A stretch of DNA of 64,000 bases. Origin: Scenedesmus sp. PABB004. Lineage: Eukaryota. Position 1 is the first letter of the stretch. Each line of letters opens with the position of its first letter. Below are positions 5,001 through 63,932 of this stretch, in pieces. The position numbers and the translations under genes were made by a program. Location of the stretch: assembly GCA_014905635.1 (NCBI GenBank), contig JABVCE010000004.1, positions 558,001 to 622,000 of the forward strand, read 5' to 3'. Below the pieces are notes generated by a model. That model made no database searches. It saw only the letters and a program-made list of their open reading frames with translations, and was not told the DNA's origin.

Positions 5001-6286
5001 CGCCGCGCCGCCGCGCAGGCGAGGCCGCGGGGCAGGCCCTGCTGTCGCACATCCCCTGGCCCTGCAGCCTGCGCACCGCGCTCACGCGCTGCGTTGACCT
5101 CACGGGCGTGCCGCGCAAGTCGCTGCTGCGCCTGCTCGCGGAGCACTGCGCCGACGCCGACGAGCGCCGCACGCTGCTCTACCTCGCCAGCCGCGCGGGG
5201 CGCGCCGCGTACGCCGACGAGATCACCGCCGGCCAGCCCTCGCTGCTCGACCTGCTGCGCCGCTTCCCGAGCGCCGCGCCGCCGCTCGACGCGCTGCTGG
5301 ACGCGCTGCCGCCGCTCGCGCCGCGCATGTACTCGCTGTCCAACGCCCCGGGCGCGGGCGGCGGCGGCGGCGACGGCGCGGTGCGCGTGCAGGTCGCCCT
5401 GAGCGTGGTCGAGCACGCGACGCCGTACGGCACGCGGCAGGGCGTGGCGTCCACCTGGCTCGCGCGGCTCGCGCGGCCGTGGCTCGCGGGCGAGGGCGCG
5501 CAGGGTGAGGCGCGGCGCGGCGCCGCCCCGCGCGGCCGCGGCGCGCCGCCGCCGCACACCCACGACTCGCCCCTCCGCCGCCGTCGCCGCCGCGCGGGCA
5601 CGCGCGCAGGGGCAGCCGGCGCCGCCGTGCGCGTGCCGCTCTTCCTGCGCCGCGCGGTGGACTTCCGGCCGCCCGCGTCCCTCGGCACGGCGCTGGTCAT
5701 GATCGGCCCCGGCACGGGCGTCGCGCCGTTCCGCGGCTTCCTGCAGCAGCGGCGCGCCGACATGCAGGCGCGCGGGGGGCGCCGCGCTGCGCTGCGTCGC
5801 GCCTCACGCCTGGCCGCGCACCTGTGCGCGCCTGCCCGCCCTGCGCGGCCGCCCATTGCGCGCGCGCCGCGCTCCGCCGCGCGTCCTCTCTCTCACCAAC
5901 AGGCGGCGCCCGGCGCGGAGGCGGGCGCGGCGCTGCTCTACTTTGGGTGCCGCCGGCCAGACGAGGACTACTTGTATGAGGCCGACTGGGCCGCGCTGCG
6001 CGATGCGGGCGCGCTCAACGAGCTGCGCGTTGCATTCAGCCGCGCGCAGGCGGACAAGGTGTACGTGCAGCACCTGCTGCGCGACGACGCGCGCGCGCTC
6101 GCGCGCCTGCTCGCGGGCGGCGCGCACGTGTACGTCTGCGGCGACGGCGGCGCGATGGCGCGCGACGTGCACGCCGCGCTCGCGGCCGTGCTGCGCGACC
6201 AGCTCGGCATGACCGAGGCGGAGGCGGGCGCGGAGCTGGCGGCCATGGCCAAGGCGGGGCGCTACGTGCGCGACATCTGGTCCTGA
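2097..6286 (+). CDS. MTRR: Methionine synthase reductase-like diflavin (FMN/FAD/NADPH) reductase, multi-exon
   Basis: Flavodoxin motifs YASQTGTGQEIA, STGDGDPPD, LGLGDSNYTRF, ADEVDGLEDTVDPW. FAD-binding LAPRMYSLSN, GVASTWL. NADPH domain MIGPGTGVAPFRGF, LYFGCR, AFSR, KVYVQH, YVCGDG. C-terminus YVRDIWS*. Intron 2340-2869 joins an N-terminal hydrophobic exon. Confidence 0.8.
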
Positions 6287-6396
6287 GCGCGGCGCCGGGC
6301 GTGGCGCTGGCGGCCCGCGTTCCCTGCACAAGCGCTGCTGTCGGCTGGCGCGAGTGAAAACAAGAGCGGCGTATCGTCCCGGCGTGCCGTTCTGAC

Positions 6397-6401
6397 TTAC
6401 A
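6397..6401 (-). terminator. Putative TGTAA polyadenylation signal of DCC1
   Basis: TTACA on + strand (TGTAA on -), about 100 nt after the DCC1 stop. TGTAA is the known chlorophyte poly(A) signal. Confidence 0.55.
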
Positions 6402-6497
6402 GCCGCTGCTCAGCCCGGCCGGCGCGCGACCGTTCAGCGGCTGCAGCGCAGCACCAGCCGCCGCCGCCGCGCTGTGCGCACGCGAGAGAGGCTGGCG

Positions 6498-8911: not shown

Positions 8912-9086
8912 CGCGTGCGATTGGGCGGCGCCGCAGGCTGGGCGCGGTGCGTGGCGCGCTGGCGCGCACCGCGGGCGGCGAGCGGCTGCGCGGCGGCGCG
9001 GTGGCGGCGCCGCTTCGGCGCGAGTTCAAATTCCAGGGCTCAAGCGCAGCAGCGATGCCCGCCCGGTGCACCCACGCCACTGATGG

Positions 9087-12000
9087 TCAGAACCGCCCCA
9101 CCACGGCCGCACTCGAGCCGCGGCCGTTGGCGTAGACGCCCACCAGGCACGGCGCGGCCTCAAACACCGCGGGCCGGTGGCTGACCAGCAGGTACTGCGC
9201 CGCCGGCGCGCCGTCGCCGCCGCCCGCGCACGCGTCGGCGACGAACGCGGCGACGCGGCCCGCGGCGGCGCCGTCGAGGGCGCAGTCGACCTCGTCGTAG
9301 ACGTAGAACGGCGAGGGGCACAGCGCCTGGCGCGGCGCGGGTGGGCGCGGGCGGGCGCGGGCCAGGGCGCGGGCACGGGGCGCCGCCGGGCGCGCGCGGG
9401 TGGCTGCGTGCGCACGGGCGGCCCGCCGCACGCGCGCGCCCACGCGCGCGCGCGCGCGTCGCACCTGCAGCGCAAAGCTGAGCGCGAGCGCGGCGAGCGC
9501 CTGCTGCCCGCCGGAGAGCGCGGCGAAGCGCCGCCACGCGCCGCCGTCGGGCTGCGCGTGCAGCGACACGCCCTGCACAAACAGCAGGCTGCGCTCGGGC
9601 GTGTAGGCCAGGGTCGCCGCGCCGCCGCCCGAGAGGCGCCGGTAGGTGCCCTCCAGCGCGCCGTTGAGCCCCTGCGCGCGCGCGGGGCAGGGGCGCGCGT
9701 GGCGCAGCGCGCGCAGCGCGCGCAGCACCAGCCAGCCGCGCGGCAACGCGCCTGCAGCACGCCCAGCAGCTGCGCGTAGCGCCGGTCCAGCAGCGCCTCG
9801 CGCGCCGCGACCGCGGCCTCGCGCGCGGCGCGCGCGCGCTCCAGCGCCGCCAGCGCGGCCGCGAGCGCCTGCAGCGCCGCCAGGTCTCGCTCGACTGCTG
9901 CCTCGTCCACGCCGGCGCGCGCCGCCGCCACCTCGGCGCCGCGCGCCTCGAGCGCGGCCGCGCGCGCCTCCAGCGCGGCGCCGGCGGCGGCCAGCGCGGC
10001 AGGGCCTGCCCGCCCGCCGGCGGCGTCGCGGGCGCGCCGCCCGCCGCCGCCCCGCCTGGCGCGCTTGCCCGGGCGCCTGCCCTCGCCCTCGCTGTCGCCG
10101 CCGCTGTCGCTGTCGCTGTCAGCGCTCTGGCTCTGGCTCGCGTCGGGGCTGCCGCCACCTCCGGCCGCGGCGCCCTGCTGCGGGCCCGGCCCAGCGGGCG
10201 GGCTGCCGGGCCCCCCGCTGTCCACCTCCATGGCCTGCTCGCCGTGCGCCGCCTCACTGCCGGCGTCGGCCTCGCCAGTCGCTGCCAGCTGGCGCTGCAG
10301 CCGCTCCACCGCCGACACGTGGCGCTGCTGCGTGGCCCGCAGCTCCTGCAGCTCCGCGCGCTGGCGCCGCAGCTCGGCCGTGCAGGCGTCGCTCGCGCGC
10401 TGCGCGGCGCCGCGCGCCTTGGCCGCCGCGACAGCCGCCTGCCGCGCGGGCTTGAGCTGCGCGGTGAGCTGGGCGCGCTCCCCGGCCAGCTGCTCCAGCT
10501 CCGCCGTCGCGGCGGCGAGCTGCTCCTCCGTGGCTGCGAGCTTCGCCTGGGTGGTGGCGACGGCGGCGGTGGCGAAGTGAGGCGCGCCTCCGCCTGGGCG
10601 GTGGCGGCGCCAGCGGCGGGGGGCGCGCTGCCCCAGCAGTGGGCTGGGCTGAGCCGCTGCCAGCCCCCCCCCCACCCCACCTGCAGCGCAGCCCGCTCCT
10701 GCTCCTGCTGCTGCCCACGGGCGCCGCGCACGCGAGCCAGCTCCTTGACCAACGCCGCGGCGCGGGCGCACGCGTGCTTCTGCTGCTGCTTGGCGGCGTC
10801 GGCAGCGGCCCAGGCCGCCTCCACCTGCGCCGCCGCGGCCGCGGCCGCGTCGCGTGCCGCCTCCAGGCCGCCGCTGGCTGCCGCACGCGCTCGCTTGCCC
10901 CTGCCCCTGCCGCCGCTCGGCTGCGGCTCCTGCTGCAGCGCCTGCTGCCGCGCCTCCAGCTGCTGCACAGCCGCAGCGGCGGCGGACGCCGCCTCCTCGG
11001 CCGACGCGAGCTTGCGCTCCGCCGCCGCCAGCTGCTGCCGGTCGTCCTGCACGCCGTCGACGCGCGCCGATGCCGCAGCAGCCTGGCCGCGCAGGCGCTG
11101 CACCGCGCGCTCCGCGGCCGCGCGCGCCTGCTGCTGCTGCAGTACGTGCTCCCGCGCGCCCGCCAGGGCCTCGTCCGCTGCGGCAGCTGCTCGTGCGGCG
11201 TCCGATGCCCGGCGCTCCAGCTCGGGCAGCGCGTGCAGCGCGGCGGCGCGCTCCGCCTCGGCCTCGCGCGCGGCCGCGGCGCTGCCGGCGCCGTCGCGCG
11301 GCGCATCGATGGGCGCGGGGCTGCCGACCGGCACGGCGCAGGGTTGCGCGGCAGGGCCGCCGCCGCCGCCGCGCGCTGGGAAGTGCGCCACAATCTCGCC
11401 GTCTGCTTTGAAGACCTCCCCTGCCCGCGTGACCAGGTGGCGACGCAGGTGCAGCAGGCGCCGCGCCGCCGCGCGGTCCTCCACCAGCAGCCAGCCGCCC
11501 AGCAGCTGGCCCAGCAGCGCGTCGAGGCCCGGCACAGGCACGCCCGGCGCGCCGCGCACACAGCCGAGCAGCGCACGCGCGCCCGGCGGCGGCGGCGGCG
11601 CCGGCGCCGGCGCGGCCAGCTCCGACAGCACGCGGCACTGCGCCACGCCGACGCGGTGGGCGCTGAAGTGTTGAATGACCGCGGCTGCGGTGGCACGGTC
11701 GGTGACGAGCAGCGTGCGGCTCAGGTCAACCGTCTCCTGCAGCGCCGCGTTGACGGCGGCGGCGGCGCCAGCGTCACACACCGCCAAGGCGTTGTGCAGG
11801 CGGCCGTGGAAGGTGCCGGGCAGCGCGCCGCCGTCGCTCAAGGCTTTGAGGTGGGCCACGGCGGCGTCGTAGCTGCGTTGGCCGGGCGGGGGCTGGCCGC
11901 CGCGCGTCTTCGCGCCCGCGCCCGCCCGCGCCCGTGCCAGCTGCTCATGCAGCTCCCGCAGCTCTGTGTGCGCGGCGCGCCACTCGCCCTCCACGCCCCC

Positions 12001-14099: not shown

Positions 14100-14353
14100 G
14101 ACGCGGAGCGTGGCGTCCGGGACGCGCTGCGCGGAGCTTAGGGCCCGCGGGCTGCACGGGGCCCCCGGGCCCTGCCGCCGCGCGCCGCACGCTGCGTTCG
14201 AACGAACAACAATCGCGGCGGCGGCGCTGCGGCTGTGCGATTGCTCTGGTCCCACTGCGCGGCGGGAGGCTTGAGGTCGCTGCCGCGACACACGCGCCGG
14301 AGGGCTTTTCCCTAAAACCCGCGCGTTTAAGCGCGCGCTGCGCCCTCGAGCCG

Positions 14354-15226
14354 TCACGCCGGCTTCTTGCGCGCACCGCCGCCCCGGATCAGCTCCGTCG
14401 TCGTCACCGACGCCGAGAAGCCCCGCGCCTCCTGCAGCGCTGCCGCGGCCGTGCGGCCCTGCAGCTTCGAGTGCGCGTGCCGCGCGCGGCTGACGAGCGC
14501 CGCGGCCTCCCGCTCCATCCCCTTGAACGTCGCGAGGTCGCCCTCCAGCTGCGCCGCCGCCGCCGCGCGCAGCGCCTGCTTGTGCGCAATGTCCGCCTCG
14601 AGCCGCGCCTGCGCGGCACGCGGTCGGCCGGCCGGCCGGTCGGCCGGGCGCGGGGGAGGAGCGCCGCGCCGGCCGCGCCCGCCGCCCTGCAGGCGCGGCT
14701 GCCGGCAGCCGTCGCGGCGGCGCCGCGCGCCGCGCGCACGCGGCCTGCGCGCGCGCAGCGCACCAGGCAGGGCGCGATGTGCGTCGCGATCGTCGCATCG
14801 ATTTTCTGCAGCGCCCCCTCATCGCACCGCACCGCCTCGCTGCGGCGGTGCTTCTCCGCCATCATCCTGTGCATCTGCCGGTCCAGCTGCTGCGCTCCCC
14901 CGGCGGCCACGGCGCGGCGGCAGAGGCGGCGGCCGCGGCGGCCGAGCGTCGGCGGGGCCGCCGCGAGGCCGAGCGCCGGCCGGCCGCTGGCGACGCGCCG
15001 TGCGCCGCACCGCAATGAGGCGCGCAATGAATTTGGGGTCGCGCCGCATGAGCTCCCGGATCTTGGCCTGCGCCACGCGGCGGCGAACAGGCAGTGGGGG
15101 CGTGAGCGGCTGGCTGTGGGGCCCTCGGAGGCTTTCAGGCTTGGGCGACGCAGGCGGCAGGAGCAGCGGACGAGCCTGGTTGCCCCGCAGCGCCGCCACG
15201 TCGAGCTCTTCCTCCTGCTCCGCCAT
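14354..15226 (-). CDS. Small coiled-coil protein of unknown function (4 exons)
   Basis: MAEQEEELDVAALRGNQ|AKIRELMRRDPKFIARLIA|..QLDRQMHRMMAEKHRRSEAVRCDEGALQKIDATIATHIAPCL|ARLEADIAHKQ...GGARKKPA*. Splice sites restore the frame; heptad-like helical pattern. Confidence 0.65.
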
Positions 15227-16118: not shown

Positions 16119-19033
16119 TCACCACTGCCCGCCCTGCGCGCCGCGCGCGCCAAAGAGGCCCCACGGCGGCGACAGCATGTCCCACGTCAGCGAGTGCTGC
16201 GCCGCGGGCGGCCGCGGGGCCGGCTGCGGAGGCTGGAGGCCGAGCGGTGCGCCGCCCGCCGGCGGCGCGTCCCACGGCGTGAAGAGCGACGCCCCCGCCG
16301 GCGGCGCCAGCTGCAGCTGGTGCGCGAAGCCCTGCTGCAGCAGCGCCGCCTGCGGGCCGCCGCCGCCGCCGCCCGGGGCGCGCCCGCGCCGCCGGGCTGC
16401 TGCAGCTGCAGCGGCGCCGTGGGCGTCTCGGGCGGCGACGGCGCGGTGGACGCGGTGCTGTTGCTCTCGCGCTGCTCCTTGGCCTGCCAGGCGCCGTCCC
16501 GCCGTGCGGTCGGCGCGCCCGCCGCGGCGTCCGGCTGCAGCTGCTGCCAGTCCGCGCCGGCGTGGCCGGGCTCGCCCGCCGGCGCCGGCGCGGCCCTGCT
16601 GCACGCGCCGCCGCCTGCCGCCATGGCGCCCGTCAGCCGCGCGCCGGGCGGCGGCTGCTGCTGGTCGGCCGCGCGCGCCTGCGCGCGGCCCGCGTCGAGC
16701 GCGCCGCGGCTGGCGCCGCCCGGGCGCCCGGGCCACGGCGCCGCCGCGTGGGGCGCGTGCGCCGGTGCGCCCTGCCCGCCGCCGCCGCCGCCGCCGCCCG
16801 CGTGGGCCGCCGCCACGGCCGCCGCCGCCGCGGCCTTGCCCTCGACCGCGCGGCGCACATTCAGGAAGAAACCGTCCACGATCGTGCCGTGCAGCCCCGC
16901 GATCGCCGCGTCGACCGACGCCGGGCCGTTCTTGAACTTGCAAAACGCAAAGTTCTGGGCCGGACACAGGAGGGGAGGACGTCGTGAGGGGCGGCGTTGG
17001 GGCGCGGCGCCCGGCGCCGCGGCCCGGCGCGCGCGGCGGCGGCCGGCGCGGTCGAGCGCGGCGCGCGGCGGCGCACCTTGTCGCGGCCGTTGCGCAGCGT
17101 AAAGTACTTGATTTTGCCAAAGCGCGTTAGGAGCCGCCGCACAGCCTCCTCGTCCCACGAAAGCGGTAGGTCTGCACGGCGCGGGGTGGGGCCGCGGGGC
17201 GCGGCGCGGCGCGGGGGCGGTTGGCGGACGTAGCGCGCGCCGCGGGTGACCGCTTGCGGCGGGCGGGACACGCAGGGGCCGCGCGCCGCGCGGCCCGGCG
17301 CGGGCGGGGCGGGGCGCAGGCGGCGCGGGGCTCACCGCCGATGTAGAGCTCGTTGACATCATACGGCTTGCCGCCGCCGCCAAAGGGCCCCCGGGCCCGG
17401 GGCCCGCCGCCGCGAGCCGCGCGCCGCCGCCGCCGCCGGCGGCGTCGCCGGCCGCGAGGCCGCAGCCAGCCGCTGCAGCCGCCGCCGCGGGGCCCAGGCC
17501 GCCGCCGGCACCGGCTTGCGGCGCGAGCAGCGGCGCGCCAAACAGGCCGTCGCCGACGCTGCTGCCGCTGCTGGTGCGGTGGTGGTGGTGGTGGCGGAGC
17601 GGGAAGGCCCCGCCCGGCGGCTCGGCCCCGCCGCCGCCGCCGGCCGCGTCGCGGGCGCGCGGCCCGGCGCCCTTGCCGTCGGTCGCGCGCTGCACCGCGA
17701 GCGTCTTGCCGTCCACCGGCCTGCGGTCGAGCTCCGCGATCGCGCGCGGGACGATCGCGGGGCTGGCAAACACCACAAAGGCGTAGCCCTGCGGCCGGCG
17801 AGGTGAGCAGCGACGCGGCGGCGAGGTGAGGGGCCTTGACTGAACCCCCCGTGCCGGGTGTGGCGTGCGCGGCGGACGGGCGGGCGCGCGCCGGACGCAC
17901 GGCGCGGGCACGCGGCGCGGGCGGCGCGGCGGACGCGCGGCGCGCGCCTTGTTCTTGCCGGTCGCCGCGTCCATGGCCACGCTGAGGCTCTTGAGCTGCC
18001 CGTAGGGCGCGAGCAGCTCCTTGACGTGCGACGGCTTCCAGTGGCTCGGCAGGCCGCCAATGAACACCTCGTCCGGCTTGCTCTGGTCCGCCGCCGCGGG
18101 CACCAGGTCGCGCCCGCCGGGCGGCCGCGGCGCGGCGGCCGCCGGCGGCGGCGGCGGCGGCGCGAGGTGCGCGCCGCCGCGCGCGCCGGCGGCCGCGGCG
18201 CCGCCGCCGCACGCGGCGCCGCACGGGGGCTCGCCCGCAGCGAGCTCGCCGCCCGGCGCCAGCAGCGCCGGCGTGCCGCCCCGGCCCGCGCGCTGCAGCG
18301 ACGTGAGCACGGCCGGGTCGGGCGTGCAGGGGCCCAGCAGCACGGCGACGTCAGGGTCGTAGTGCTGTGGCCGCCGGATCTGCGGGCGGCGCGCGGCACG
18401 GGCGCGCGGCGCGGGCGCGCGGCGCGGGCGGGGTCGGCGGCAGCCCTCCGGGTGCGGCGCGCCGGGCCCCTGCGCGCCCGCGCCGCGCCCCGCACCTTGA
18501 GCGGCACGCCCTGGAACGTTACGCTGTCAAACGCGAGGCAGTTGCTCGCCTCAACCGCGCTGCGCATCTGCAGCAGCGCCGCGCCGCGGTCGTGGCCGAG
18601 CGGGCTGCTGTCCGTCACGGGCGCGCCTGGCGCGACGGCGGCGCCGTGGGCGCGCATGAGGTCGACCAGAAAGGCGACCAGGTCGTGCTGCGGGCGCGGC
18701 GGCGCGCCCGCCGGCGGTGTGAGGGGCCGCGGGCGCCGGCAGCTGCCGCGCCGCCTGCGCGCGCGCCGCCGCCGCCGCCGCCCTCCGCCTCATGGTCCTG
18801 AGGCTCACCTGCTGCGTGCCGTCGGGAATGCGTTCGACCCAGAGCTGGGTCGCCAGCTGGAGCGACGGCAGGGGCAAGGGCGCACCGCTGGCGCCGGCCG
18901 CCAGCGCCGCCGCCTGTTGCCAGGCGCGCCAGTGCTGCAGCTGCGCCGAGAGCTCGCTCAGCTCGTCCCGCATCGCCCCCCGCGCCGCCGGCGGAGGCTG
19001 CGCCGACGCGTGGCCGGGCTGGGCGGCCTCCAT
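16119..19033 (-). CDS. U2AF65 (U2AF large subunit)-like three-RRM RNA-binding protein
   Basis: RRM1 ending MRSAVEASNCLAFDSVTFQGVPLK|IRRPQHYDP; RRM2 DEVFIGGLP..VKELLAPYGQLKSLSVAMDAATGKNK|GYAFVVF; third RRM ELYIG|DLP...NFAFCKF. Apparent 1-nt indel near 16376. Confidence 0.75.
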
Positions 19034-26471: not shown

Positions 26472-28963
26472 CTAGAGCGGCCCTGGCCCCGGCCGGCTGC
26501 TGCTGACGGCCGCGGGCTCGCTGGCCTCCCGGGCGGCGCCCGCGGCGCCCGGCTGCTGCCTGCTGCCGCTGCCCGCGCCGCTGGCGCCGGGCAAGATGTT
26601 GTTGTTGCTCCCCACCGCGTGCTGCTGCTGCTGCTGCTGCTGCGGGGGCTGCGGTAGATGCTGCTGCTGCTGCTGCTGCTGCTCCGCCGGCGTCTGCGCT
26701 GCGCTGTGGCCTCCGGCGCTGCCGGTGCTGCCGCTCTGCTGCCCGCTGGAGCTGGGCGACGAGTAGGCGCCCGGCCCGCCCGCGAGCTGGCCCACGCTCT
26801 CAAAGCCGTTGGCCGCCAGCTGCTGCTGCAGCTGCTGCGCCGTGAGCACCACGTGCTGCGCCGCCGGCGCCTGCTGCGCCGGCGCCCGCGCGCCCTCCGC
26901 CGCCGCCGCCGCCGCCGCCGCCTGCTGCTCCCGCGCCGCCGCCGGCGGCGCCTGCTGCGCCGCCGCCGCCGCCTGCGCCGCCGCGGCTGCGGCGGCGCGG
27001 CGCGGTTCGTCCTCGTCCGACGACGTGCCGAGCGAGTCGAGCTCAAGCAGGCCGTACTCGTCGTCCGGCAGCCACTGCATGAGCCACGGGTGCGCGAGCG
27101 CCTGCGCGACCGTCATGCGCGCGCCGTAGTCGCGCGTGAGGCAGCGCGCCATGAAGTCGCGCCCCTCGCCGCTCATGCCGCGCCAGGGGCCGTAGTCGAG
27201 CGCGATCGGCGCCTCGGCGACGAGCAGCGCGACCTCGTCGAGCTTGGCGTGCCGGCACTCCTCGTAGGTGCGCCAGAAGGGGAAGCGGCGCGCGTAGAGC
27301 TGGTACAGCATGATGCCGAGGCTCCACATGTCCGCCTCCCAGTGGTAGTCGCGGTCAAAGATCTCGGGCGCCATGTAGACTGTGCGTGGCAATGGAGGGA
27401 GGGGAGAGAGGAGTTGAGAGAGGGGCGGCAGCGGTGCGCGGGGTGCGCGACGTGTGAGAGCGCGCGCGGGGCGGGGGCGGGCCGGGGGCGGGGCGGAGGC
27501 GGAGGCGCGCGCGGCGGCGGGAGCGGCGGCGGCTGGGGCGCACCCGGCGTGCCGGTGCGCTTGCTGAAGCGCGCGGGGCTGAGGTACTGGGAGCACCCAA
27601 AGTCGATCGCGAGCAGCCAGGGCTTGCCGAAGAGCAGGTTGATGTCCTTGCTGAACAGCGGGTTGCGCGTGCGGTCGACGAGCACAAAGTTGGCGGGCTT
27701 GACGTCGCCGTGCAGGATGCCGAGCTCGTGGCACTTCTCCACGACCTGCAGCACCTCGTACGCGATCAGCGCGACCGCGCGCTCCGGCAGCGCGCCGTGG
27801 TCCTGCGCGCGGGCGGCGCCGCGGGCGGGCGGCGCCGCGGGCGGGCGGCGCCGCGTCGGCGGCCGCGCGGCGCGGCGCCGCCTGCAGCCGCCGCCGCCTG
27901 CCGCGCGTGCGCCGCCGCCCGCCGCCGCTGCGTGCGCGCCGCGCGCCGCGCGCCGCGCGCCGCGCGCACGTCTGAGAGCTTCTGCAGGTCGCCGCCCGAG
28001 CAGAGCCCCGTGACGACCATGACCTCGTCGGGCGCCTCGTAGCAGCCGAGCAGGCGCACGGTGTTGCGGCAGGCCTGCATCTTGGTCAGGATGCCGACCT
28101 CCTTGGCCAGCTTCTGCAGCGTGCGCTCCTTGGTCAGCTTGCCGCGCTGCTTGGGCATGACCTTGATCGCGACCTGCGGGGGGCGGCACGGGCGCACGCG
28201 TGGAGCCGGGCGGGGCGGGGCGGCGGCGCTCAACCGCGACCGCGCCGCCGCGCGCCGCCGCGCGCGCGCGCTGCCCCGCCGCCGCCGGCTGCCGTCTGGC
28301 TGGTGCCGCGCCGCCGGCGCACCTCCTGGCCCGTGTGCAGGTCGATGCCCAGGTAGACGCTGCCGAAGCTGCCCTGCCCGATCAGCTTGCCCTGCGCGGC
28401 GGCGGCGGCGGCGCGGCGTGCTCGGAGCGCTGCGGCAAGGGGCGCGCACCGCCTGCGCCCGCCCGGCGCGGGCCAGCGGCGCCGGCAGCGCCAGCGGCGC
28501 CGGCGTCGCGCTGCCACCGCGCGCCGCCGGCGGTTGCGAGCGCGTGGCGACAGCGCGACGCCGGCGCCGCCGCCGGCGGCGCCGCTGCTGCTGCTGCCGC
28601 GCGCCTTGACGTAGTGCTGCGCAAAGTCCACGGGCCAGCCGAGGTCGGAGGATGCGGGGGCTGGGTCGGGCACCGGAATGGTGGCCCGGCAGGCCAGCCG
28701 GCCGCGCCGGGCGCGCAACAACAGCCTGCGGGCGACGGCATCGGCGGTCGGGGCCGTGCCACGGCGCCTCCCGTGCCCGCAGCGCGGCTGCGGCGCCGCC
28801 GGGCGGCGCCCCGAGACGGCACGCACCCCGGGCGCGAGCGCTCGGGCTGCCGGCGCGGCTGCGCAGCGGCGCGGGCGGGCGCGGGCAGCAGGGCGGGGGC
28901 GGGCCCCCGCGCCCGCGCCGCGCCCGCTGGCCGCGTCCCGAGCCGGCAGTGCTGCAGCGCCAT
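26472..28963 (-). CDS. Ser/Thr protein kinase, CDPK/CaMK-related, no EF hands
   Basis: IGQGSFGSV, VAIK, HGDVKPANF, IDFG, TGTP|VYMAPE, DMWSLG, RMTVAQALAHPW. Arg/Ala-rich N-terminus and Gln/Ala-rich tail. Confidence 0.88.
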
Positions 28964-30809: not shown

Positions 30810-33800
30810 ATGCCACCCAGTGGCGAGCCCAAGGATGATGACCAGCAGATGCCTCCCGCCAGCCCCCGGTCGGGCGGCAGGCTGCGGCCGCGGTGGAGGG
30901 CGGCGCCGCGCGCCAGCAGCGGCGTCGCTGCCGAGCCTGCAGGCGTGACGTCGCCGAAGCACCGGCTCTCGCTCTCCGAGATCGACGAGACCATCTCCCA
31001 GCTCCCCACCTGGCAGCAGCAGCTGACGCTGCGCGGGCTGCTCGTCGGTGCGCTGCCAACCGCCTCCGCGCCGCGCGCGCGCTGCCAACCGCCCCCGCGC
31101 CGTGGCGCGCTGCCAACTGCCTCCGCGCCGCGCAGCCGCGGCCGCCGACGCCGCGCCGCACGCCACCACGCGCCGCCAGGCACGGGCCTGGGCCTGCTGT
31201 TCACCATCATCACGCTCAAGCTCTCCCTCGGCAGCGCCGGCATCGTGCCGTCGCTCAACATCCCGGCCGGGCTCATCTCGTTCGCGCTGCTGCGCTCGTG
31301 GACCGCGATCGGCGCGAAGCTGCACCCCGAGCGCTCGCCCGCCGCGCTGCGCGCGCTGTTCGCGCCCTTCACGCTGCAGGAGAACGCGGTGCTGCAGACC
31401 TTCACCATCAGGCGCGCGCGCCGCCGGGCGCTGCGGGGGGCGCGCGTGCTGTGCACGAGCACCTCTCACGCGACGCTCGCCGGCCCAGCAGCGCCGCCCC
31501 CCGTCCCCCGCCCCGTCCCTCGCTCCTGAACACCCACTGCACACACACTGACAACACGCACGCACCCGCCCACTCACCTCCCACGCCCCCCCCCCCCCCC
31601 CCGCAGCTTGAGCGGCATCGCCTTTATTGGCGGCTTTGGCACGTACCTTACCGGTGAGCGCGCACGCAGCCACGCAGCCACGCACGTCCACACACCCAGC
31701 CTCACACACACACGCACACGTCCACACACCCAGCCTCACACACACACGCACACGTCCACACACTCAGCCTCACACACAACGAGTGTACACGCGCGCAGGC
31801 ATGGACTACCAGGCGTACCTCAACCTCGGCGGCGCGCCGCGCGGCGACCCGGGCTTCCGCGGCGACGAGGTCTTCGACCCGCTGCTCTCGCGCTCCATAC
31901 CCTACCTGCTGCTGGTCGTGGTGCTCGGTGTGTTCATGCTCACCCAGCTGCGGCGGCTCATGATCATCGACTGGCGCCTCCCCTTCCCCAGGCGCGGCGC
32001 GGCGCGCTGCGTCGGCGCGCAGCAGCGCGCGCGGGCGCGCGGGCGGGGCCGTGCTGCGGCGGCGACGGCGCGCCGACGCGCCGCCCGCCGCGCGCGCGCG
32101 CGTCGCCCCCGCGCAGCGGCACCGCGAGCGGCATCATGCTGACCAGCTTCCACACGGCGGTGCGGGGCGGGGACGGCACGGGCAGGCGCGGCCGTGGGCG
32201 CGGGGGCGGGCGCGGCCGCGGCGGCGCCGCACCCGGTCACGCGCGCCGCCGCCGCGGCCGCGCAGGCGGGCGAGGCCGAGGCGATGCGCAAGGTGCGACT
32301 GCTCTCGTGGACGGGGCTCTCCTCGTTCCTCTTCAGCGTCTTCAAGTGGATCTTCTCTGGCGCAGACTACGGCTGCGGCCTTGGCGTGTGGCCGACGTTT
32401 GGACTCAAAGCGCTCGACTACACGTGGAGCCTCGACTGGCAGCAGAACTACATAGGCGCTGGCATGATCTGCCCCCACATAGTCAATTGGTCGATGCTCC
32501 TCGGGGCTGTGCTCAGCTGGGGGATCATGTGGCCGCTGCTCGAAAAAAGGGCGGGCGACTGGTACCCGGCTGGCCTCACCTCGCGCGACTTCAAAGGCTT
32601 GTTCGGATACAAGGTGCGGCGCGGCCCACGCTGGTGGTGTTCCAACGCGCTCGGCCCACGCCGTTGTTGGAATGCTCGGGCCACGCTGGCGTTCCAGTGC
32701 TCCGCACGCTGCGCGCGCTGCGCGCGCCGCGCGCGCTGCGAGCGCCGCGCGCGCTGAGCGCCGCCGAGCGTGCGCCGGACTCCCGCGCCGCCGCAGGTCT
32801 TCCTGACCATCGCGCTGCTCATGGGCGAGGGCGTGTACATGACCCTGCGCGTGCTGATCTCCAGTGAGCCCGCGGCCGCGGCGGCGGTGGCGGCGGGGAC
32901 GGCGGGGACGGCGGTGGCAGGCCGCACGCGCGCGGGCCGCCGGGCGCGGCGCGCGGCCGCATCGCCTCCCGCTCACGCGCGCGCACGACGCCGCCGCCGC
33001 CGCACGCGCAGGCGCCCGCGACGGGCTGCGCCGGCTCGCCGAGGCGCGCGCCGCGCGGCGGCTGCCGCAGTACCGGCGCGGCCTTCCCAGCGAGCCGGGC
33101 GTGGCGCCGCTGGACCTCGATGATACCCCAGGTGTGTGCTCGCGCCCGTGCAGCAAAGGCGGGCGAGCGCGCCACAGCACGGCCGCCGCAGCGAGGCCCC
33201 GAGCCCCCCCCCCCCCCGCCCCGGCCGCCCGCCGCCTCGGGCGCGGCAGGCGCCGGCGCGGGCGGCGCGAAGGCCGGCGGGCCCGCGCTGCCGGACGGCA
33301 CGGCGAGCGGCTCGCCGCTCGCGGCGGCCGACTCGGGCGCGGGGCACCTCGCCCAGCCGCTCGCGGAGGAGGACGATGGCAAGCACCTCCTGCAGTTCAG
33401 GGAAACCGAAAACGAGGTGCGCCGCGCGGCGCGCGCCGCAGCGCGTCCAGCCTCGCCGCGCGGCGCCCGCGCCAGCGCGGCGCCGGCCGACCCCGCCGCG
33501 CCCGCGCGCGCGCGCACGCACGCGCAATCTGGCAGCGGCTGCTGCGCTCCGAGGTGTTCCTGCGCGAGACGATCCCCTGGTGGCTCGCGCCGCTCGGGTA
33601 CGGCGGGCTCGCGGTGCTGAGCACCATCTGCATACCCTTCATATACCCGCCCGTCAAGTGGTGAGCCGAGAGAGGCCGCCCCGCCCGCCCTTGGCTCAGG
33701 CGGCGCCGGCGGGGCTCGCGGCAGCGCGGCAGGGGCGGCGGCGCCCGCGCGCCGCGGCGCGCGGGGGCGCGACAAAACCGCCGCCAAAACCGCCGCCAAA

Positions 33801-39111: not shown

Positions 39112-45119
<6,008 letters not shown>

Positions 45120-45198: not shown

Positions 45199-47397
45199 TC
45201 AGTACGCGCGGTGGTGTTGGTGCCCGCCCAGCAGCGACGTGCGCCGGCTGCCCGCCGACTTGACGCCGCCGTCGTCGTCGCCGCCGCCGCGCGCGCAGCG
45301 CCAGACCACCAGCGCGAGCGTCACAAACGCGCAGACCGCGGGCAGGCCCCACCAGCGCGCGTGCTCGTCGCGCCCCATGCAGACGAGGTCGGGGCTGAGC
45401 GTGGCCTTGAAGTGCTTGGTGATCCTGGCGGGGGCGGGGCGTGGCGGGGAGGGCAAGGGTGCGCGGGAGGGGCCGCGCAGGGCGGCGGAGGCGGGCGCGC
45501 TCAGATTGCGCGGCGCGCAGCATGCGCAGCGCGTGCACAGTGTGCGCGCACTTGTGCAGCGCGGCGACGTCCTCCACCGTCGACGCGGCGAGGCCGAGCG
45601 CGAGGCCGTGCTGCCCCGCGCCGAGCGCGGCGGCGGCCTCCTTGATTTTGAACAGCAGCAGCGCGATGCGCTGGTTGTACGGCAGCACCTGGCGGCAGGA
45701 CGGGGGCAGGCAGGGCGGGGCGCAGGGTTTAGGGAGGGGAGGAGAGGAGGGCGGGACGCAGGCCGACAGTGAGGCAGGGCGGGGCGCCATGCCCGGCGGC
45801 GGCAGCGGGCGCGGGCGGCGGCCCGGGCGACGCCCGCGCCGGCAAACGGGGCTGGCTGCGCGCGCGCGCCGTGCACGGCACGCCGCGCCTGCTCGGGCTG
45901 CAGGAAGCTCTTCACGTGCCGCAGGTGCCCGTCGGGGCGCAGGACCTCGAAGCCGCCGATGAGCGTCGCGGCGTGGGCCATGCTGCTGTTGAGGTACGCG
46001 AGCGCGAGGTTGCGCCCCGCCGCGTCGCGCTGCACAAAGCTCAGCGCGCGGCCGCTGCTCAGCGCGCCAAAGGGCGTCCCGCCGACGCTCCACAGGAAGC
46101 TCCACGCCTTGCCCGTCGCGGCGCTCCAGCTCAGCGCGCCGTCGGCGACGCCATACGCCTGCTGCAGCACCGCCGCGAGCACCGGGCGGTGGATGGCCCG
46201 CGGGTCCAGCCGCATCTGGGCGCTGAAGCAGCCAAAGAACGTGGGCACCGGCTCGCCCGACGTGCGCACGGCGACGACGTCGCCGGCGCCGAGGCCCGCC
46301 GCCTGCAGCAGCCCGTCGAGCAGCACCGGCTCTGCTGCCGGCAGGTGACGCGGCGGCGCGAGGGGCGGACGGGGGCGTGTCGGCGGGCGCGCGCGCCCGG
46401 CCGGCCCGCCGCCCGTGCGCGGCGCGGCGCGGCGGCCTGCCGTGCCGCGGCTGCTGCGCGGCGGCCCGGCGCCGCACCCCGCGTGGGCAGGTCAAAGATG
46501 AAGACCGGCAGGATCGCCGCGCCGCCGTGCTCCGTGTCCCAGTTGACGCCCGCCTCGCTCAGCAGCGCGTCCCGCCACTCGCGCAGCCAGACCTCCAGCT
46601 CGGCCAGGTCCAGGTAGTGGCTGGTCGCCATGGTCAGCCCCTTGCCGCCCGGCACGCGCGACGTGCGCGCCTTGAGCGCGCTGCGCGCGGCGCCGCGGCG
46701 GCGGCGGCGGCGGTGGGTCGGAGGAGCGCGCCGCGCGCGCGCGCGGTGCGCCGTCCGCTGCTGTGCCGCGCCGGCGCGTCCGCGCCCCAGCTGCCTGCGC
46801 GCTCACCCCGCAAACGCCGTCACGCAGTGGTCGCAGTCTGCGAGCAGCACAAAGTGCTCCGCCACGCTCACGGCCTGGCCGAGCGGCTCCGCGACCGCCG
46901 TGAGCTCGCGCTGCAGCGCCGCGACGTCGACGCGGCCGTCGCCGGGCGCGGCCGGGCGAGGGCCTCGACCATGTACACCAGGTGCACCTCCAGCGCCTTG
47001 CTGTGGCTCAGCACGCCGTGGTGCAGCGGCGGCCACACCAGGTGCTGCGGCGCGGCGGAGACCGTGGCACGCACGTCGGCGGCGCGCCGGCGCGGCCGCG
47101 CGAGCGCCGCGCGAGCCGGCGGCCGCCCGGCGCTGCGCCGCGCGGCGCGCGCCTGGCACCCCGACCACACGAGCGCGGCAAGGTCGGGCAGGATTGCGCG
47201 GTGCAGCGTGTCTTTCTTGTAGTGCTGCAGCAGCGGCGTGCTGTGCGCGAACACCTGCCCCCGGCCGCCGGGGCCCGGGCCATAAAAGGTGAGGTTGGCG
47301 GTGAGGTCGAACCAGGCGTAGCGCTTCGCCCCGACCCAGAGCGAGCCGGGGCAGGACGCGTTGCCCGCGGGGCCGGCGCTGCGGCGGCGCGTGCGCG

Positions 47398-47429
<32 letters not shown>

Positions 47430-48905
47430 CGTGGGCGGCGCGGCGCGCTCCCTTTGCCGCTCCCCGCCTGCACGCCCCGCCTGCGCCCCCCGCCCGCGCT
47501 CCCCTCGTCCCGCGCGCCGCGCGGCTCACGGGTCGTCCACGTAAGAGTAGGCGTACGGCGCGTGCGCGGGCGGGTTGAGCAGATAGATCGTCAGCGCGCC
47601 GTCGCCGTGGGCGTAGTCGTCGGCGATGACCGCGTCGACCGCGGCCGCGGGGACGAGGTGCAGCGGGTAGGGCGCGTACGCGCTGCTCGCTGCGGGGGGG
47701 GGGGGGGGGCACGGGCGCGCACGCACGCGCGGGCGGCGGCGGCGGCGGCGCGGTCGGCGCGGTCGGCGCGGCGCGGCGCTGCGCGGGTGCGGGCGTCGGT
47801 GCGGGCGCGCGGCGCGGCGGCTGACGCGCGGCGCGCACTCGTGCCGGCGTTGATGGCCTGGTTTATCGCGCCCGCCACGCGCGGCGCGAGCTCGTAGTAC
47901 GCCGGCTGCACGCGGAACTGGACCTCCGGCTTCACCGCCTGCGCAGCGAGAGGCGCGCGGCGCGCGGCGCGGCGGGGGCGGCGGCTCGCTGCGCCGCTGG
48001 GGTCCGCCGCTCCGCCGCGCGCCCGCGGCGCCGGCGCCGGCGCACCATGTAGCTGGGCGCCGGGTGCAGCGCGACCGTTTCGAGCTGGTTGTGCAGCGAC
48101 TTGAGGAACGCCTGCAGCTCGTGGTCCGCAAGGTGCAGCGCCATGTTGCTGCGCGCGCGGCCGCGGCGCGGGCGGGCGCGCGCGCGCGCGGCGTCAGGGG
48201 CAGCGCGCGCGCGCGCGGGCGGGCGGGCGCGGGCGGGCGGGCGGGCGGGCGGGCAGGCCGCCGCTGCTGGCTGGCCCCGCGCCGCACCCGTCGCCGGCAA
48301 AGCCGACGAGCTTGACGTCGACGGTGATCGGCACCGCGAGCTCCGTCAGCGCCTGCCGCCCGCACGGCGGGGGCCCCGTGAGCGGCGGCGCGGCGACGCG
48401 GCGGCCCCACGCCGCGCGGGCGTCGCAGCAGCGGGTGCGGCGGCGCGGGCGGCGCGGCCGCACCGCGAGCGTGTCGTTGATGGTGTAGCCGAGGTCGTGC
48501 GACCATGCCACGCGCTGCGCGTCGCTGAGCTCGCCCAGGTAGTCGACGCCCAGCGGCATCCCGCCCGCCCACTGCGCCCGCGGTGCACCCACGCAGGGGC
48601 GCGCGGTCGGCGGCCGGCGGCCGGGCGGCGCCGGCGCCGCCGCTGCCGCTGCGCTGCGCCGCGCTGCGCTGCGCTCGGCCGCGCACCCGCTTTATGTGCT
48701 CCCTCATGCCGCGGTTGACCTGCACGTGCCCGCCGCGCGCGCCCGGCGCCAGCGCGAGCGCGAGCGCCGCCAGCAGCAGCGGCGCGAGCCAACCGCTGCA
48801 CCGCCGCCGCCGCCGGCCGCCGCTGCTGCTTCTGCGACGCTCTGCGTGGTGAGCTGGCAGCTCCGGCGCCCGATCCAGGGCGCAGGGGTCCGGCTGCTGC
48901 GCCAT
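45199..48905 (-). CDS. Type-I membrane protein of the KNS3/At3g28720-like family
   Basis: Signal-like LAPLLLAALALALA; VDVKLVGFAGDG; IYLLNP; LWVGAKRYAWFDLTA...YGP; ILPVFIFDL; WSVGGTPFG.LS..LSFVQRDAA.RN; C-terminal TM segment and short tail. Family match is from memory. Indel near 46955. Confidence 0.65.
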
Positions 48906-59591: not shown

Positions 59592-59828
59592 CCGCGCTGC
59601 CACCGCGGCGGTCGGGCACGCCAGCCCCTGCCCCCATGTTTCGAGCGCACGCGCCCGCGCTGTCACCGCGGGCGCGCCACGCGCTCTCGCGCCACGCGCT
59701 CTGCCCAAAGCCGCACACACACGCCGCCGCCGCGCTGCCACCGCGGCCGCCTCCGCCGGCTCTAACCTCCGCCGGGAGCCCATGCCTCGAGCCACGCGCG
59801 CGCGCACACGCCCGCGCTGCCACCGCGG
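59592..59828. repeat. Four-copy array of a 17-nt palindromic core CCGCGCTG(C/T)CACCGCGG with variable spacers
   Basis: Cores at 59592, 59655, 59730 and 59812. Confidence 0.8.
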
Positions 59829-60187
59829 GCGACGTGCGCACGCGGGCGCCAAGCTTTGCCGCCGCCGCGCGCGTGCATGCCCTGCACGCGGCGCCTGCGC
59901 CGCCAGCCTCGACCTGCCGGGCCTGCCGCCCTAGCCGCAGCTCCGTCACTCACTCCGTCCAGGGGACCCGCCCGCGGCGCGCGCACCCGCGCCGCGCGGT
60001 CCCACTCGCTCCCGCAGGCTCGTCTGCGCGGAGCATCGCCACCAGCCCAAGAACAGAAATAGCCGCCGCAGTCGGCGCGGCGGCGAGCACTCAACCAGGG
60101 AGCGCCCCGCCGCCGAGCGCTGCGCACGCCAGCGAGCGCGCGGTGCCGCCGAGTCGGGCCGCCGCGCGCTCGCGCGCGCTGCCGCGC

Positions 60188-62226
60188 TCAGCCTGCGACG
60201 CCGCAGAGCTCGAGCAGGCTGCCCAGGTCATCGTCGTCGTCTTCATCTGGCGCGGCGCTGCCCAGCCCCGCTGCCATAGGCACGACGCCATAGCCGCCGT
60301 GGCCGCCGGCCGCGCCCGCCGCCGCCTTGGCGGCGACGGGGTCGCCGCCCGGCCAGGAGAGGCCGCCGCCGCCAAAGGCAAAGGCCGGCGGCTGGGGCGC
60401 CGGGGGCGCCGGCCGCGCGGTGAACGCGGGCAGCTGGAAGGGTGGCGGCGCCGCCTTGGCGAGCGGCGCGGGCGCGAAGGCCGGCGCGGGCGTGAAGGTC
60501 GGCGCGGGCGCGAACGCCGGCGCGAACGCCTGCGCAGCGCCGGGCTGCAGCGCGCCCGACAGGATCTCGCGCTGGCGCTGCATCTCCTGCTGCAGCGCAA
60601 AGTCACGCATCGACGCCTCCATCGCAGCCGCCATGGCTGCCGCCTCGTCGTCCGCGCCAGCCGGCGGCGCGGCCGGCCCGCCGGCGTCGCCGCCGCCGCC
60701 GCTGGACGCCGGGCCGGACGACGCACCGGTCGCGCCCGACGCGGCGGGCGAGAGCCCCCGGCTCCACTGCGCGTGCGAGCCCGCCTCGGAGCCCGCCGCG
60801 TCGCCGGCGTCGCCGCCGTCGTCGCTCGCGGCGCTCTCGTCGTCCGAGTCGGACAGGCCGAGCATTCTGTTGTAGGCCTTGAGGTCCGTCACCGCCCTGA
60901 AGCCGCCCATGAGGCCGCCGCCGCCGCCGCCGGCCGCGGCGGCGCTGCTGCCCGCGCCGGCGGGCGCGCTGAAGGTGCTGAGGCTCGACGCGTCGGCTGT
61001 GTCGGCGCTCGCCTCGCTGCCGCCCTCGCCGAGCGCGGCGGCCTCCTTTTTCTTGCGCGCGCGCGCCAGGTTTCGCTTCTGTGCCTTGGTCAGCGCCTCC
61101 TCCAGCACCAGGCCGACGGTCTCGGCCTTGGGCGCGTCGGGGTCGCTGCGTCCGGTGCCGAGCGCCGCGGCGGCCGACGCGCCCGGCTCTGGCACCGCGC
61201 CGAGCCTGTCTGGCGCGGGCCGCACCCAGGCGTTGGGCACGGGCGCCGGGGCGGGCGGTTCACCCTGCGGCGCGCGCGCGCGGCGCGGCGCGGCGGGGCG
61301 GGGCGGGGCGGGGCGGGGCGGGGCGGGGCGGGTCGGCCGCGAGCGGGGGCGGCGCGGCGCCCGCGGCGGCCGCTGCTGCTGCCGGGCCGGCCGCCGCGCG
61401 CGCGCGCGCGCCACTCACTGCAACTTTGCAGCGTTGACATGGTGCGCCTTGGGCGCAGCGGGCGCCTTGGGCTTGGCCGGCTTGGCCGCCGCCGCGGGCG
61501 CTGCCGCCGCGGGCGCTGCCGCCGCGGGCGCGCCGCCCTTGCTGCCGGGCTTGGCGCTCGGCACGACCTGCTGCACTGGCGGCGCCTGGGCCTTCTTTTT
61601 CTTCTCCTCGTTTCTGGGCACGATGGGGTGAGACTTGTCGACCTGCGGCGCGCGGGCGGGGCGGAGTGGTGCGTGGGCGCGGGGGGGGGGGGGGGGGGGG
61701 GGCGGCGCGGCGCGCGCGCGGCTGTCGTCCGCCCCGGCAGCAGCGCCGCGCGCCGCGCGCACCTTTCCCTTGCACTCGTCAGGGAACTTGGTGTTCTTGC
61801 CGCGCCCGCGCGGGCAAGGGAAGCCGGCCTTGCGGTTCCTGCGCGGCGCGGGGCGGAGCGGGGGCGTCGGCGCGCCGCCGCGGCGGCCAGCCGCCGCAGC
61901 GCGCGATCAACAACCGCGCGCGGGCGCCGCACATCTCGAATCCATGCTTCTTGAGATACTTCTCTATGCAGCCCTGGTGGTACATGAGCGAGTCGCAGCG
62001 CGGACACGAGATGGCGACGCATATCTGCGCGCGGGGCGGGGCGGGCTCATTCATGGATGCGCTCGAGAAGCTCCCCGCCCGCCCGCGCGCGCCGCGCCGC
62101 CGCCGCGGCGCTCCCCGGCCGCACCTCTGCGTCGGGGTGCACGTCGTCGCCGCAGAGGTCGCACACGCAGCCGCGCATGTCGCGCAGGCGCGCCACGTCG
62201 CCCGTGTCCACCGCGTAGGTCGGCAT
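60188..62226 (-). CDS. C4HC3 (PHD/RING-variant-like) zinc-finger protein with UIM-like motif
   Basis: Spliced N-terminus CDLC...CPRC..YHQGC..YL...CP(x12)C; Lys/Ala-rich middle with LTKAQKRNLARARKK; DDEAAAMAAAMEASMRD (UIM-like); acidic end DDDDLGSLLELCGVAG*. Confidence 0.65.
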
Positions 62227-62685
62227 GGCGCCACCCGCGCGCGAGGCGCCGTCGAGGCGGGCGCGGGCGCCAAAGCCCGGCCCAGCAGGGCCGGGGGCGG
62301 GCGCGAGGCGGGCCGGGCGCAGGCGGGTGCTGCAGCGAGGCGGGGGATGGGCGCGCGGGGGGCGCCGGTGGGTGCCTGGGCCGTGGCGGGGGCGGGGGTT
62401 GCGGCGGGGGCCGGCGGGGGCACCAGGCACGCCGCTGTTCGAGGGCCCAAGCCTCGCGGTCTAGCGGCGCCCCCGAGGCCGCGCCGAGGCGGCCCTGTGC
62501 AGCCCGGCTGGCCTGTGCAGATCCGGGCGGGCGAGGCGGCGCTGCCAGCGGCAGCGGCGGCGAGCGCGCGGCGCTCGAGCGGCAGCGCGCTGACGCCGTC
62601 GCCGAGCCGCTGAGCGAGGGCGCCGCCGCGTGAGGCGGAGCGTGCGGGGGCCCTCACGACTGACGTTGCACCAGGGATCGCCCCG

Positions 62686-63932
62686 TCACTGCGGGCGCGC
62701 CGGCGGCGGCGCCGCGACGCTGCCCAGCGGCTCGCCCGAGACGGTGCTGGCGGGCGCGCCCGCGAACGAGGGGCCCGCGGGCGCGCCCGACGGCGCGCCG
62801 GTGCCGCCCGACGGCGCGCCGCCGCCGGTGCCGCCCGTGGCCGAGGGCGTGGGCCCGCGCGCCGCCGCCGCCGACGTGACCTCCAGCCCGCCGCCGCCGC
62901 GCGCCCCGCCGCCGCACACCGAGTCTGCGCGCGCGGGGCGGGGCGGCGACGGCCGGTCAGCTGCGGCGGGGCGGGGCGGGGGCGGGGGCGGGGGCGGGGG
63001 CGGCGCGCGGCGCGCGGCGCGCACCCGACTGGCTGTTGCTCTCGGTCGGCTGCGCCGCCTGGCTGGAGGGGTGCAGCGACGCCGTGTGCTTGCGGCCCTG
63101 GCTGTCCGCGGGCGCCGGCTCCTGCTGCGGCGGCTCGCTCGCCGCGGCGCCGCCCGCGCCCCTGATCGGCTCCAGCAGCCGGTCGGCGACGGCGACAAAC
63201 GTGTCAAAGATGCTCTCGGGGTGCAGCACAAACTCGACGTACGACAACGCGCCGATGCCGTCGCGCACCGCGCCCAGCGCGACCTGCGGCCGCCGCAGGT
63301 CGGGCGGCGCGGCCGCGGCGTGGGCCGCGGCGGCCCGCCGCGGGAGCTGGCTGCCGGGGCGGGCTGCCCCGCGCGCGCCTGCAGCTGCCCAAGCGCCCGC
63401 GCTGCGGCGCGCGCGCGCGGCACGCGCCTCTGCGGCCTCCTCGGGCGGGTAGCCGTACACGCCGGTTGAGATGGCGGGGAACGCCAGGTTCTCCAGGCGC
63501 CGCTTGTTGGCCAGCTCCAGGCACGACCTGCGCGCGTGCGCGTGCGGTCAGCACACGGCGCGGCGGCGTGCGCCGGGCGCGGCGCGGCGCGCAGCGCCGC
63601 AGGCGCGCACAGGTACGCCTTGCGCAGCAGCGGCGCCGACTCCTCGGCGCTCTTGTAGATCGGGCCGACGGTGTGGATCACAAACTTGGCCTGCAGCCGC
63701 CCCGCGCTGCGGACGCGCGGCGCCGCGCGGCGGCGCAGCGGCGGGCCGTCAGGCATGGCCGGCGCGCGGCGCGCGGCGCCCCGGGCCGCCCGCGCCCGCT
63801 GCGGGCCGCGGGGCGCGCGCGGGCCGCACCTGGTCATGCGCGCCTCGCCGGTGGGGCAGCGCACGTCCGGCGCGACCTCCGGCACCTGCTGGCACGCCGC
63901 CAGCAGCTTGGGCCCCGCCGCGCGGTGGATGG
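62686..63932 (-). CDS. Macrodomain ADP-ribose glycohydrolase (MacroD/YmdB-like), 5' end beyond window
   Basis: AIHRAAGPKL, RCPTGEARMT, FVIHTVGPIY, LAFPAISTGVYGYPPEEAA. Confidence 0.9.

Follow-up and report, generated by a model that had tools for sequence, protein, structure and literature searches.

Can introns that begin with GC become common in an extremely GC-rich nuclear genome under classical 5' splice-site recognition? The question is raised by 64 kb of DNA from the green alga Scenedesmus sp. PABB004 (GenBank assembly GCA_014905635.1, contig JABVCE010000004.1, positions 558,001 to 622,000 of the forward strand). This whole stretch is hereafter called the window, and its own numbering is used throughout. 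An earlier note on this DNA had claimed 14 GC-donor introns and read them as a sign of relaxed or rewired recognition of the 5' splice site. All 14 coordinates do carry an exonic AG followed by GC on the strand of the gene concerned, and 12 of them are fixed by homology exactly at the GC. At these 12 sites the introns start with GC and end with AG, and their removal restores a continuous frame that aligns without gaps to orthologous proteins. We consider it likely that they are ordinary U2-type spliceosomal GC-AG introns of chlorophyte nuclear genes, in which the T at donor position +2 was replaced by C under pressure towards guanine plus cytosine (G+C) and an exonic CAG compensates for its loss.

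The G+C content is 77-82% throughout the window, and stop codons are rare at such composition: 394 open reading frames of at least 100 residues are spread across all six frames. An open frame is thus weak evidence for a GC donor, and the argument of the earlier note that a GC donor was needed to keep the frame carries no weight. As frame openness is uninformative, the sites were tested by homology. We used a custom spliced protein-to-genome aligner with intron states and split codons, which does not use exon-side bases in donor scoring and charges non-GT donors 3 points more than GT. The donor sets compared were GT alone, GT with GC, and GT with a control dinucleotide (CG, GG or CC) of similar or higher abundance. 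Two further sites, at 5768 and 17947, were fixed via alignments to solved structures. The homology-fixed set thus obtained holds 45 introns (33 with GT and 12 with GC donors), 41 of which are in the genes for ELP3, a YSL/OPT transporter and a KNS3-like protein (DUF7906). The 12 GC sites are distributed as two in ELP3, five in YSL, two in the KNS3-like gene and one each in a CPR/MTRR-like reductase, an SMC and a U2AF65-like gene. Separately, an ab initio codon log-odds model was trained on ELP3, YSL and the KNS3-like gene, and recovered 40 of the 41 verified introns on these training genes. It was applied to 20 gene regions one at a time, a whole-strand run having merged all genes into one model and been discarded. 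Forbidding single donors in this model proved a poor discriminator, with nearby GC dinucleotides acting as substitutes. Codon periodicity in exons is strong (third-position G+C 0.92-1.0), and the coding segments called by a simple periodicity hidden Markov model end on, or within 9 nucleotides (nt) of, eight of the claimed sites.

The clearest cases come from the three genes with full-length homologues. ELP3, modelled with 11 introns, has GC-AG introns at 42445-42568 (+ strand, phase 0, donor cag|GCGCGTG) and 43164-43306 (+ strand, phase 0, cag|GCGCGCG), each recovered with 8/8 homologues. Both junctions lie in near-invariant sequence, with ...DPYVQ followed by ARSRV... at one and ...EIGLQ followed by SVYED... 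at the other. A GT 6 nt upstream of the first donor (42439) would remove two conserved residues, and the single GT within 90 nt of the second (43215, 51 nt downstream) would add 17 residues to an invariant block. The YSL gene contributes five introns on the + strand, all with junctions within conserved blocks. The intron at 31412-31606 (phase 2, cag|GCGCGCG; acceptor at 31606 or 31612) was recovered with 6/7 homologues and is gapless against the closest of these, P0121. Those at 31992-32116 (phase 2, cag|GCGCGGC), 34262-34413 (phase 2, cag|GCGCGCG), 34475-34607 (phase 0, cag|GCACGCC) and 34849-34965 (phase 0, cag|GCGCGGC) were each recovered with 7/7. In the KNS3-like gene on the - strand, the introns at 45689-45888 (phase 0, cag|GCGCGGC) and 47045-47152 (phase 0, cag|GCGCGCG) were both supported by 3/3 full-length homologues, the latter also by P0121; a fourth homologue, a 300-residue fragment, gave no information on either. 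Here an in-frame GT 12 nt downstream of the donor at 45888 (45876, GTGCAC) would add four residues in a conserved block, and is a possible alternative donor for that intron.

The preference at these sites is specifically for GC. Allowing GC beside GT outscored GT alone and GT with CG, GG or CC in 8/8 ELP3, 7/7 YSL and 3/4 KNS3 runs. When all 16 donor dinucleotides were admitted, with every non-GT donor at equal cost, the nine sites of the three genes came out as GC in 8/8 runs, and the remaining non-GT calls were confined to poorly conserved stretches. GC makes up 22% of the dinucleotides of the window, so that nine of nine would be expected by chance at about 1e-6. Runs restricted to GT deprived ELP3 of the two conserved residues or added the 17, and cost YSL one exon. 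Counting both strands, the window holds 45 copies of CAGGCGCG; as this motif is common by itself, the evidence lies in its coincidence with homology-fixed exon ends.

Three further sites belong to genes outside this training trio. In the CPR/MTRR-like diflavin reductase, the intron at 5768-5902 (+ strand, 135 nt, phase 0, cag|GCGCGCG) is bridged by structure alignments that run on contiguously, from residue 514 to 517 of Arabidopsis CPR and from 329 to 334 of human CPR. Both usable acceptors are in phase 0, GTs of matching phase occur only at 48 and 72 nt upstream, within conserved sequence, and the ab initio model recovers the site with the largest drop of all on forbidding it (10 nats). A second such intron, at 17789-17947 (- strand, 159 nt, phase 0, aag|GCGCGCG), splits the RRM2 domain of the U2AF65-like gene. 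The chain numbering is contiguous over the junction in 3/3 printed alignments (72/72, 80/80 and 43/43), the junction falls inside the RNP1 motif, and no in-frame GT is closer than those at -33 and +36 nt. The SMC intron at 9672-9751 (- strand, 80 nt, phase 0, cag|GCGCGTT) has moderate support. The GC donor was chosen with 3/8 homologues in one run and 3/6 in another, the rest being too divergent to align there; SMC homologues were mostly fragments or too divergent, and 5/8 produced unusable alignments full of spurious short introns. With the three informative homologues (P0276, P0308 and P0312) the GC donor yields a gapless alignment, and a GT 9 nt upstream (9760) results in a 3-residue deletion.

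We considered whether these donors could be artefacts of gene modelling, such that nearby GT junctions are the real ones or the segments are unspliced in-frame coding insertions. With all frames open, stop codons cannot exclude retention, several of the introns (e.g. 5768-5902 and 17789-17947) have lengths divisible by three, and in-frame GTs occur 6-12 nt from three sites. However, the GT alternatives remove or add residues in near-invariant blocks, and retention would insert 45-53 residues into the FNR domain of the reductase and into RNP1 of the RRM. Moreover, the segments called as GC introns show no codon periodicity and end in CGCAG or CCAG, as do the GT introns, and a CAG|GCGCG signature would not be expected of such artefacts. 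We therefore regard this explanation as highly improbable. As a separate observation, four AG|GC sites (42445, 9751, 63427 and 15175) are followed at a distance of exactly 4 nt by a GT (GCNC|GT...), which is out of frame; its use would make the conserved protein impossible, and these GTs might act as decoys or compete as alternative sites.

The two remaining claimed sites stand apart. A probable GC-AG intron past the Macro domain (63284-63427, - strand, gag|GCGCGTG), with an uncertain acceptor at 63284 or 63347, begins where the Pfam and PDB alignments of the domain stop, at the exon end by 63427. The ab initio score of this region was 124 with GC, 108 with GT only and 118 with the best control, and forbidding the donor cost 4.3 nats. 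The GT found 4 nt further downstream has phase 1, and the acceptors that match this phase all yield introns of 39-60 nt. When the downstream exon was searched against solved structures, there were no matches at E up to 10. On these model scores a GC donor at 63427 appears plausible. The site at 15068-15175 (- strand, cag|GCTCGTC), assigned to a 'coiled-coil' gene, is no more than a candidate. The region has nearly no coding signal (an ab initio chain of 20 nats, with a drop of 2.2 nats on forbidding the donor), a Pfam search of it gave no match, and the T at +3 is unlike that of every verified donor. The ab initio model also offers one weak candidate absent from the earlier list, at 28392-28604 in a protein kinase gene (- strand, aag|GCGCGCG), which lies N-terminal to the kinase domain and whose prohibition costs 0.3 nats.

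Is 5' splice-site recognition relaxed or rewired? The donors of the homology-fixed set argue that it is not, since those with GC are stricter than those with GT. CAG precedes the donor in 11/12 GC introns versus 2/33 GT introns (Fisher p 9e-8), AG in 12/12 versus 8/33 (p 4e-6), and A stands at -2 in 12/12 versus 9/33. The CAG signal constitutes independent support for the GC junctions because the aligner ignored exon-side bases. On the intron side the two classes are alike: +3 is G in 11/12 GC and 31/33 GT donors, +4 is C in 12/12 and 24/33, and +5 is G in 12/12 and 33/33. Positions +3 to +5 read GCG in 11/12 GC donors, and the strict pattern common to the GC donors is (C/A)AG|GC(G/A)CG. That most of the 14 claimed sites continue as GCGCG was correct (12/14), with GCACG at 34475 and GCTCG at 15175. 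The canonical U1 5' end is AUACUUACCUG, and the canonical U6 box is ACAGAGA. Assuming this canonical U1 end and counting nine positions, GC donors can pair at 6.1 positions on average versus 5.7 for GT donors.

This anatomy also bears on the possibility that a change in the splicing machinery has made GC as acceptable as GT, whether in the U1 5' end, U6, base modifications, or U1 small nuclear ribonucleoprotein (snRNP) proteins such as U1C. The share of GC donors in the window is well over the 1-2% that animals, fungi and plants usually show (Frey & Pucker 2020, PMC7072748), and Iwata & Gotoh (2011, PMC3033335) termed such abundance in Aureococcus and Micromonas pusilla an enigma, for which they proposed base modifications or proteins of the U1 snRNP. 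Among the ab initio predictions, GC donors follow 12/28 exons ending in CAG, as against 2/14 ending in AAG and 1/9 ending in GAG. Nevertheless, a system indifferent to +2 should use GC donors whatever the exon ends in, and just 8/33 GT donors come after AG. The GC donors occur only where the exon ends in NAG| and only as GCGCG or GCACG, as is predicted if an unaltered U1 needs compensation. The U1 5' ends of Aureococcus and Micromonas pusilla are, furthermore, reported as canonical (Iwata & Gotoh 2011, PMC3033335). A Rfam search of the 64-kb window gave no matches and no small nuclear RNA (snRNA) gene. We judge altered machinery to be quite unlikely, and rewired recognition is not supported: as far as sequence can tell, the data would point away from it and towards the classical compensation logic of GC-AG introns. 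A related variant, to which we give a low but slightly better chance, is that +2 is near-neutral when the exon ends in CAG, with recognition mainly via positions -3 to +1 and +5 and a possible change in a U1 snRNP protein or in proofreading of +2. If true, it would make this the most GC-AG-rich core chlorophyte known, versus 2% in Chlamydomonas.

Based on these observations we propose that GC-AG introns with compensating exonic CAG would arise as follows. Under extreme G and C pressure on the genome, A and T would have been lost from the donor at +3 and +6 and largely at +4, and from the pyrimidine tract. The T at +2 would then be nearly the last A/T base on the intron side of the donor, because GT donors have neither A nor T at +3 or +6 and C at +4 in 24/33. 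Where the exon ends in CAG this T may be dispensable, as CAG would give the 5' end of U1 snRNA, itself unaltered, three additional base pairs to offset the one lost at +2, and the outcome would be a high steady-state share of GC-AG introns. The introns are 85% GC and of similar length in both classes (median 134 nt for GC and 132 nt for GT). The acceptors too are similar for the two classes, with a C-rich tract before them; their description as C/G-rich and devoid of a U-rich tract was borne out (55% C, 32% G and 7% T at positions -20 to -4, and C at -3 in 44/45).

Several side observations concern these intron ends. A CTNAY-like branch motif lies 10-60 nt before the acceptor in only 11/45 introns, and a branch-site signal is not obvious. 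Two unrelated introns, with ends at 31,587-31,606 (+ strand, YSL) and 47,690-47,709 (- strand, KNS3-like), terminate identically in 16 C followed by GCAG. Finally, the gene at about 16,120-18,970 (- strand), previously described as an 'RRM gene', is a homologue of the large subunit of U2AF (U2AF65) and itself contains a GC-AG intron; U2AF65 is a binder of the polypyrimidine tract, and the tracts in the introns of the window are C-rich with only 7% T.

Two other origins can be weighed from the intron sequences. U12-type introns resemble the GC-AG introns in being a non-GT-AG minority class. In contrast to them, none of the 45 homology-fixed introns has a U12-type donor (RTATCC(TT)) or a TCCTTRAY-type branch site near the 3' end, and U12-type identity was rejected. 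Alternatively, the GC-AG introns could be recent insertions of introners carrying a GC donor. Aureococcus and Micromonas pusilla, the species with the highest GC-AG shares, are also rich in introners, which counts in favour of this idea. The real introns of the window also share more weak blastn matches than dinucleotide-preserving shuffles (473 versus 172-225). On the other hand, the best intron-intron match reaches 67 bits versus 54-65 in the shuffles, pairs of GC introns make up 4.4% of matches versus 6.7% expected, and the GC introns have the lengths of GT introns. No shared repeat family was found among the 45 homology-fixed introns by intron-intron blastn, and the excess of weak similarity is probably due to shared low-complexity GC-rich repeats and common ends. 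The probability of an introner origin thus seems to us close to negligible.

Could errors in the assembly, with T read as C at +2, disguise true GT donors? The KNS3-like gene lends this some colour, with what appears to be a frameshift of one base. At about 46,930-46,960 on the - strand, the frame matching three homologues shifts by one base where an intron cannot fit, and 24-25 homologue residues that are gapped in the alignment can be read in the adjacent frame. This break is apparently a one-base frameshift, due to an indel in the assembly or to a genuine mutation; a 'GC intron' called by the aligners at 46957 was rejected as an artefact of it. However, the explanation would need a dozen such errors in 64 kb, all at +2 after CAG. 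Moreover, the identical 10-mer with T, CAGGTGCGCG, also occurs four times, and CAG|GT donors are present in the same genes. Complementary DNA, in addition, is reported to document the same phenomenon in other GC-rich algae (Feldmesser 2014, PMC4028052). We accordingly attach almost no probability to base errors as the source of the GC donors.

How frequent, then, are GC donors? In ELP3, YSL and the KNS3-like gene they account for 9/41 homology-fixed introns (22%). Ab initio, 137 introns were predicted over the 20 gene regions, 32 of them with a GC donor. Fifteen of these 32 are NAG|GC, namely the 14 claimed sites and the weak candidate at 28604, and such calls are absent from 11/20 gene regions. 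With the control dinucleotides, only 2/25, 0/14 and 2/25 of the non-GT calls were preceded by AG. A non-AG GC call is seen, for instance, at 53069 in the inositol 5-phosphatase (INPP5) gene. A fair reading of these model-based counts would put the window-wide share of GC donors at about 15 of about 120 introns (12%), and roughly one intron in five to eight in the window starts with GC. The hand count of the earlier note, which had put GC donors above 10% of introns, is therefore upheld for the window. There the share is several-fold above 1-2%, be it from 9/41 in three chosen genes or from about 15 of 120-137 ab initio.

Several points weigh against reading the introns as the outcome of G+C pressure with exonic compensation, or against its extent. 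The share of 22% is biased upward, as the genes were picked for their claimed sites, and the window-wide share rests on a model whose 17 non-AG GC calls, the artefact at 46957 among them, are at control level. Two of the 14 sites, 63427 and 15175, are candidates outside the homology-fixed set. In-frame GTs 6-12 nt from three verified sites (42439, 45876 and 9760) could be used in some transcripts. The junctions are read from genomic sequence and protein alignment, and the share pertains to this window. The assembly is not error-free, with at least one apparent 1-nt frameshift. Finally, we infer, rather than observe, the origin of GC-AG introns by T-to-C substitution pressure. A comparison with lower-GC loci found no orthologous positions: six metagenomic ELP3 loci, aligned from the 80 kept of 397 confirmed, come from organisms of 43-66% GC, have one or two introns each at other positions, and share none with the ELP3 gene of the window.

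Against the known diversity of splice sites, the window falls in with a small set of algae. In animals, fungi and plants about 98% of introns are reported to be GT-AG, and the GC-AG frequency seen here is about ten times the ordinary 1-2% in these groups (Frey & Pucker 2020, PMC7072748). The shares given by Iwata & Gotoh (2011, PMC3033335) are 39.6% in Aureococcus anophagefferens, 22.2% in Micromonas pusilla, 7.7% in Chlorella NC64A, 2.4% in Volvox and 2.0% in Chlamydomonas. About 14-17% is reported for the pelagophytes Aureococcus and Pelagomonas (preprint 10.1101/2024.10.30.620910), and in Emiliania huxleyi GC donors reportedly form 56% of 241 curated junctions, some of them confirmed by reverse-transcription PCR (Feldmesser 2014, PMC4028052). 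As described in these sources, the GC-AG-rich algae share with the window a high GC-donor share, a normal AG acceptor, a very high G+C content and similar intron lengths in both classes, and the abundance of GC-AG introns has been attributed to G+C content. Unlike them, the window belongs to another lineage, its proteins being closest to those of Sphaeropleales and Trebouxiophyceae, and its local G+C is about 80% as against the 65-70% given for the published cases. The strict CAG|GCGCG context is documented here, and we found no description of it in the excerpts of those reports consulted. A limited literature search found no published GC-AG share for Sphaeropleales.

GC donors elsewhere generally match U1 more strongly than GT donors do. 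The introns of the window agree with the ordinary GC-AG introns of animals, plants and fungi in having GC...AG termini and in that the rest of the donor is closer to U1 than in GT introns. They differ in the intron-side consensus, which is GCGCG, after the GTGCG of the lineage, in place of GCAAGT, and hence compensation is on the exon side, through CAG.

Pfam matches on six-frame open reading frames map about 20 intron-rich eukaryotic genes in the window. They include those for the CPR/MTRR-like reductase, Dcc1, SMC, the RRM protein, Nop53 and a protein kinase; for the OPT/YSL transporter, an F-box protein, a sucrose-phosphatase-like protein and ELP3; and for the DUF7906 (KNS3-like) protein, an inositol 5-phosphatase, a fatty acyl reductase and the Macro-domain protein. 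The nearest relatives of their products come from Tetradesmus, Raphidocelis, Monoraphidium, Micractinium and Chlorella, and the window belongs to the nuclear genome of a chlorophyte green alga. The homologue P0121, a 1394-residue gene model from a related alga, joins a DUF7906 (KNS3-like) part to an OPT/YSL part. The window has these two genes on opposite strands with 10 kb between them, and the fusion is probably a mis-joined model, unless the genes are neighbours in that relative.

The phenomenon has already been described for other very GC-rich algae, and the window is another example, of higher G+C and from another green-algal lineage; the finding opens no new question. G+C content and GC-AG introns were already known to be linked, and this relation is extended here by a chlorophyte example at about 80% G+C. 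The clean rule of compensation, by which GC donors come after CAG, favours a U1 that is unaltered and speaks against rewiring of the spliceosome. The main use of the finding is as a caution for gene prediction in this genome, where gene finders that admit no donor but GT will get the models of a sizeable fraction of genes wrong.

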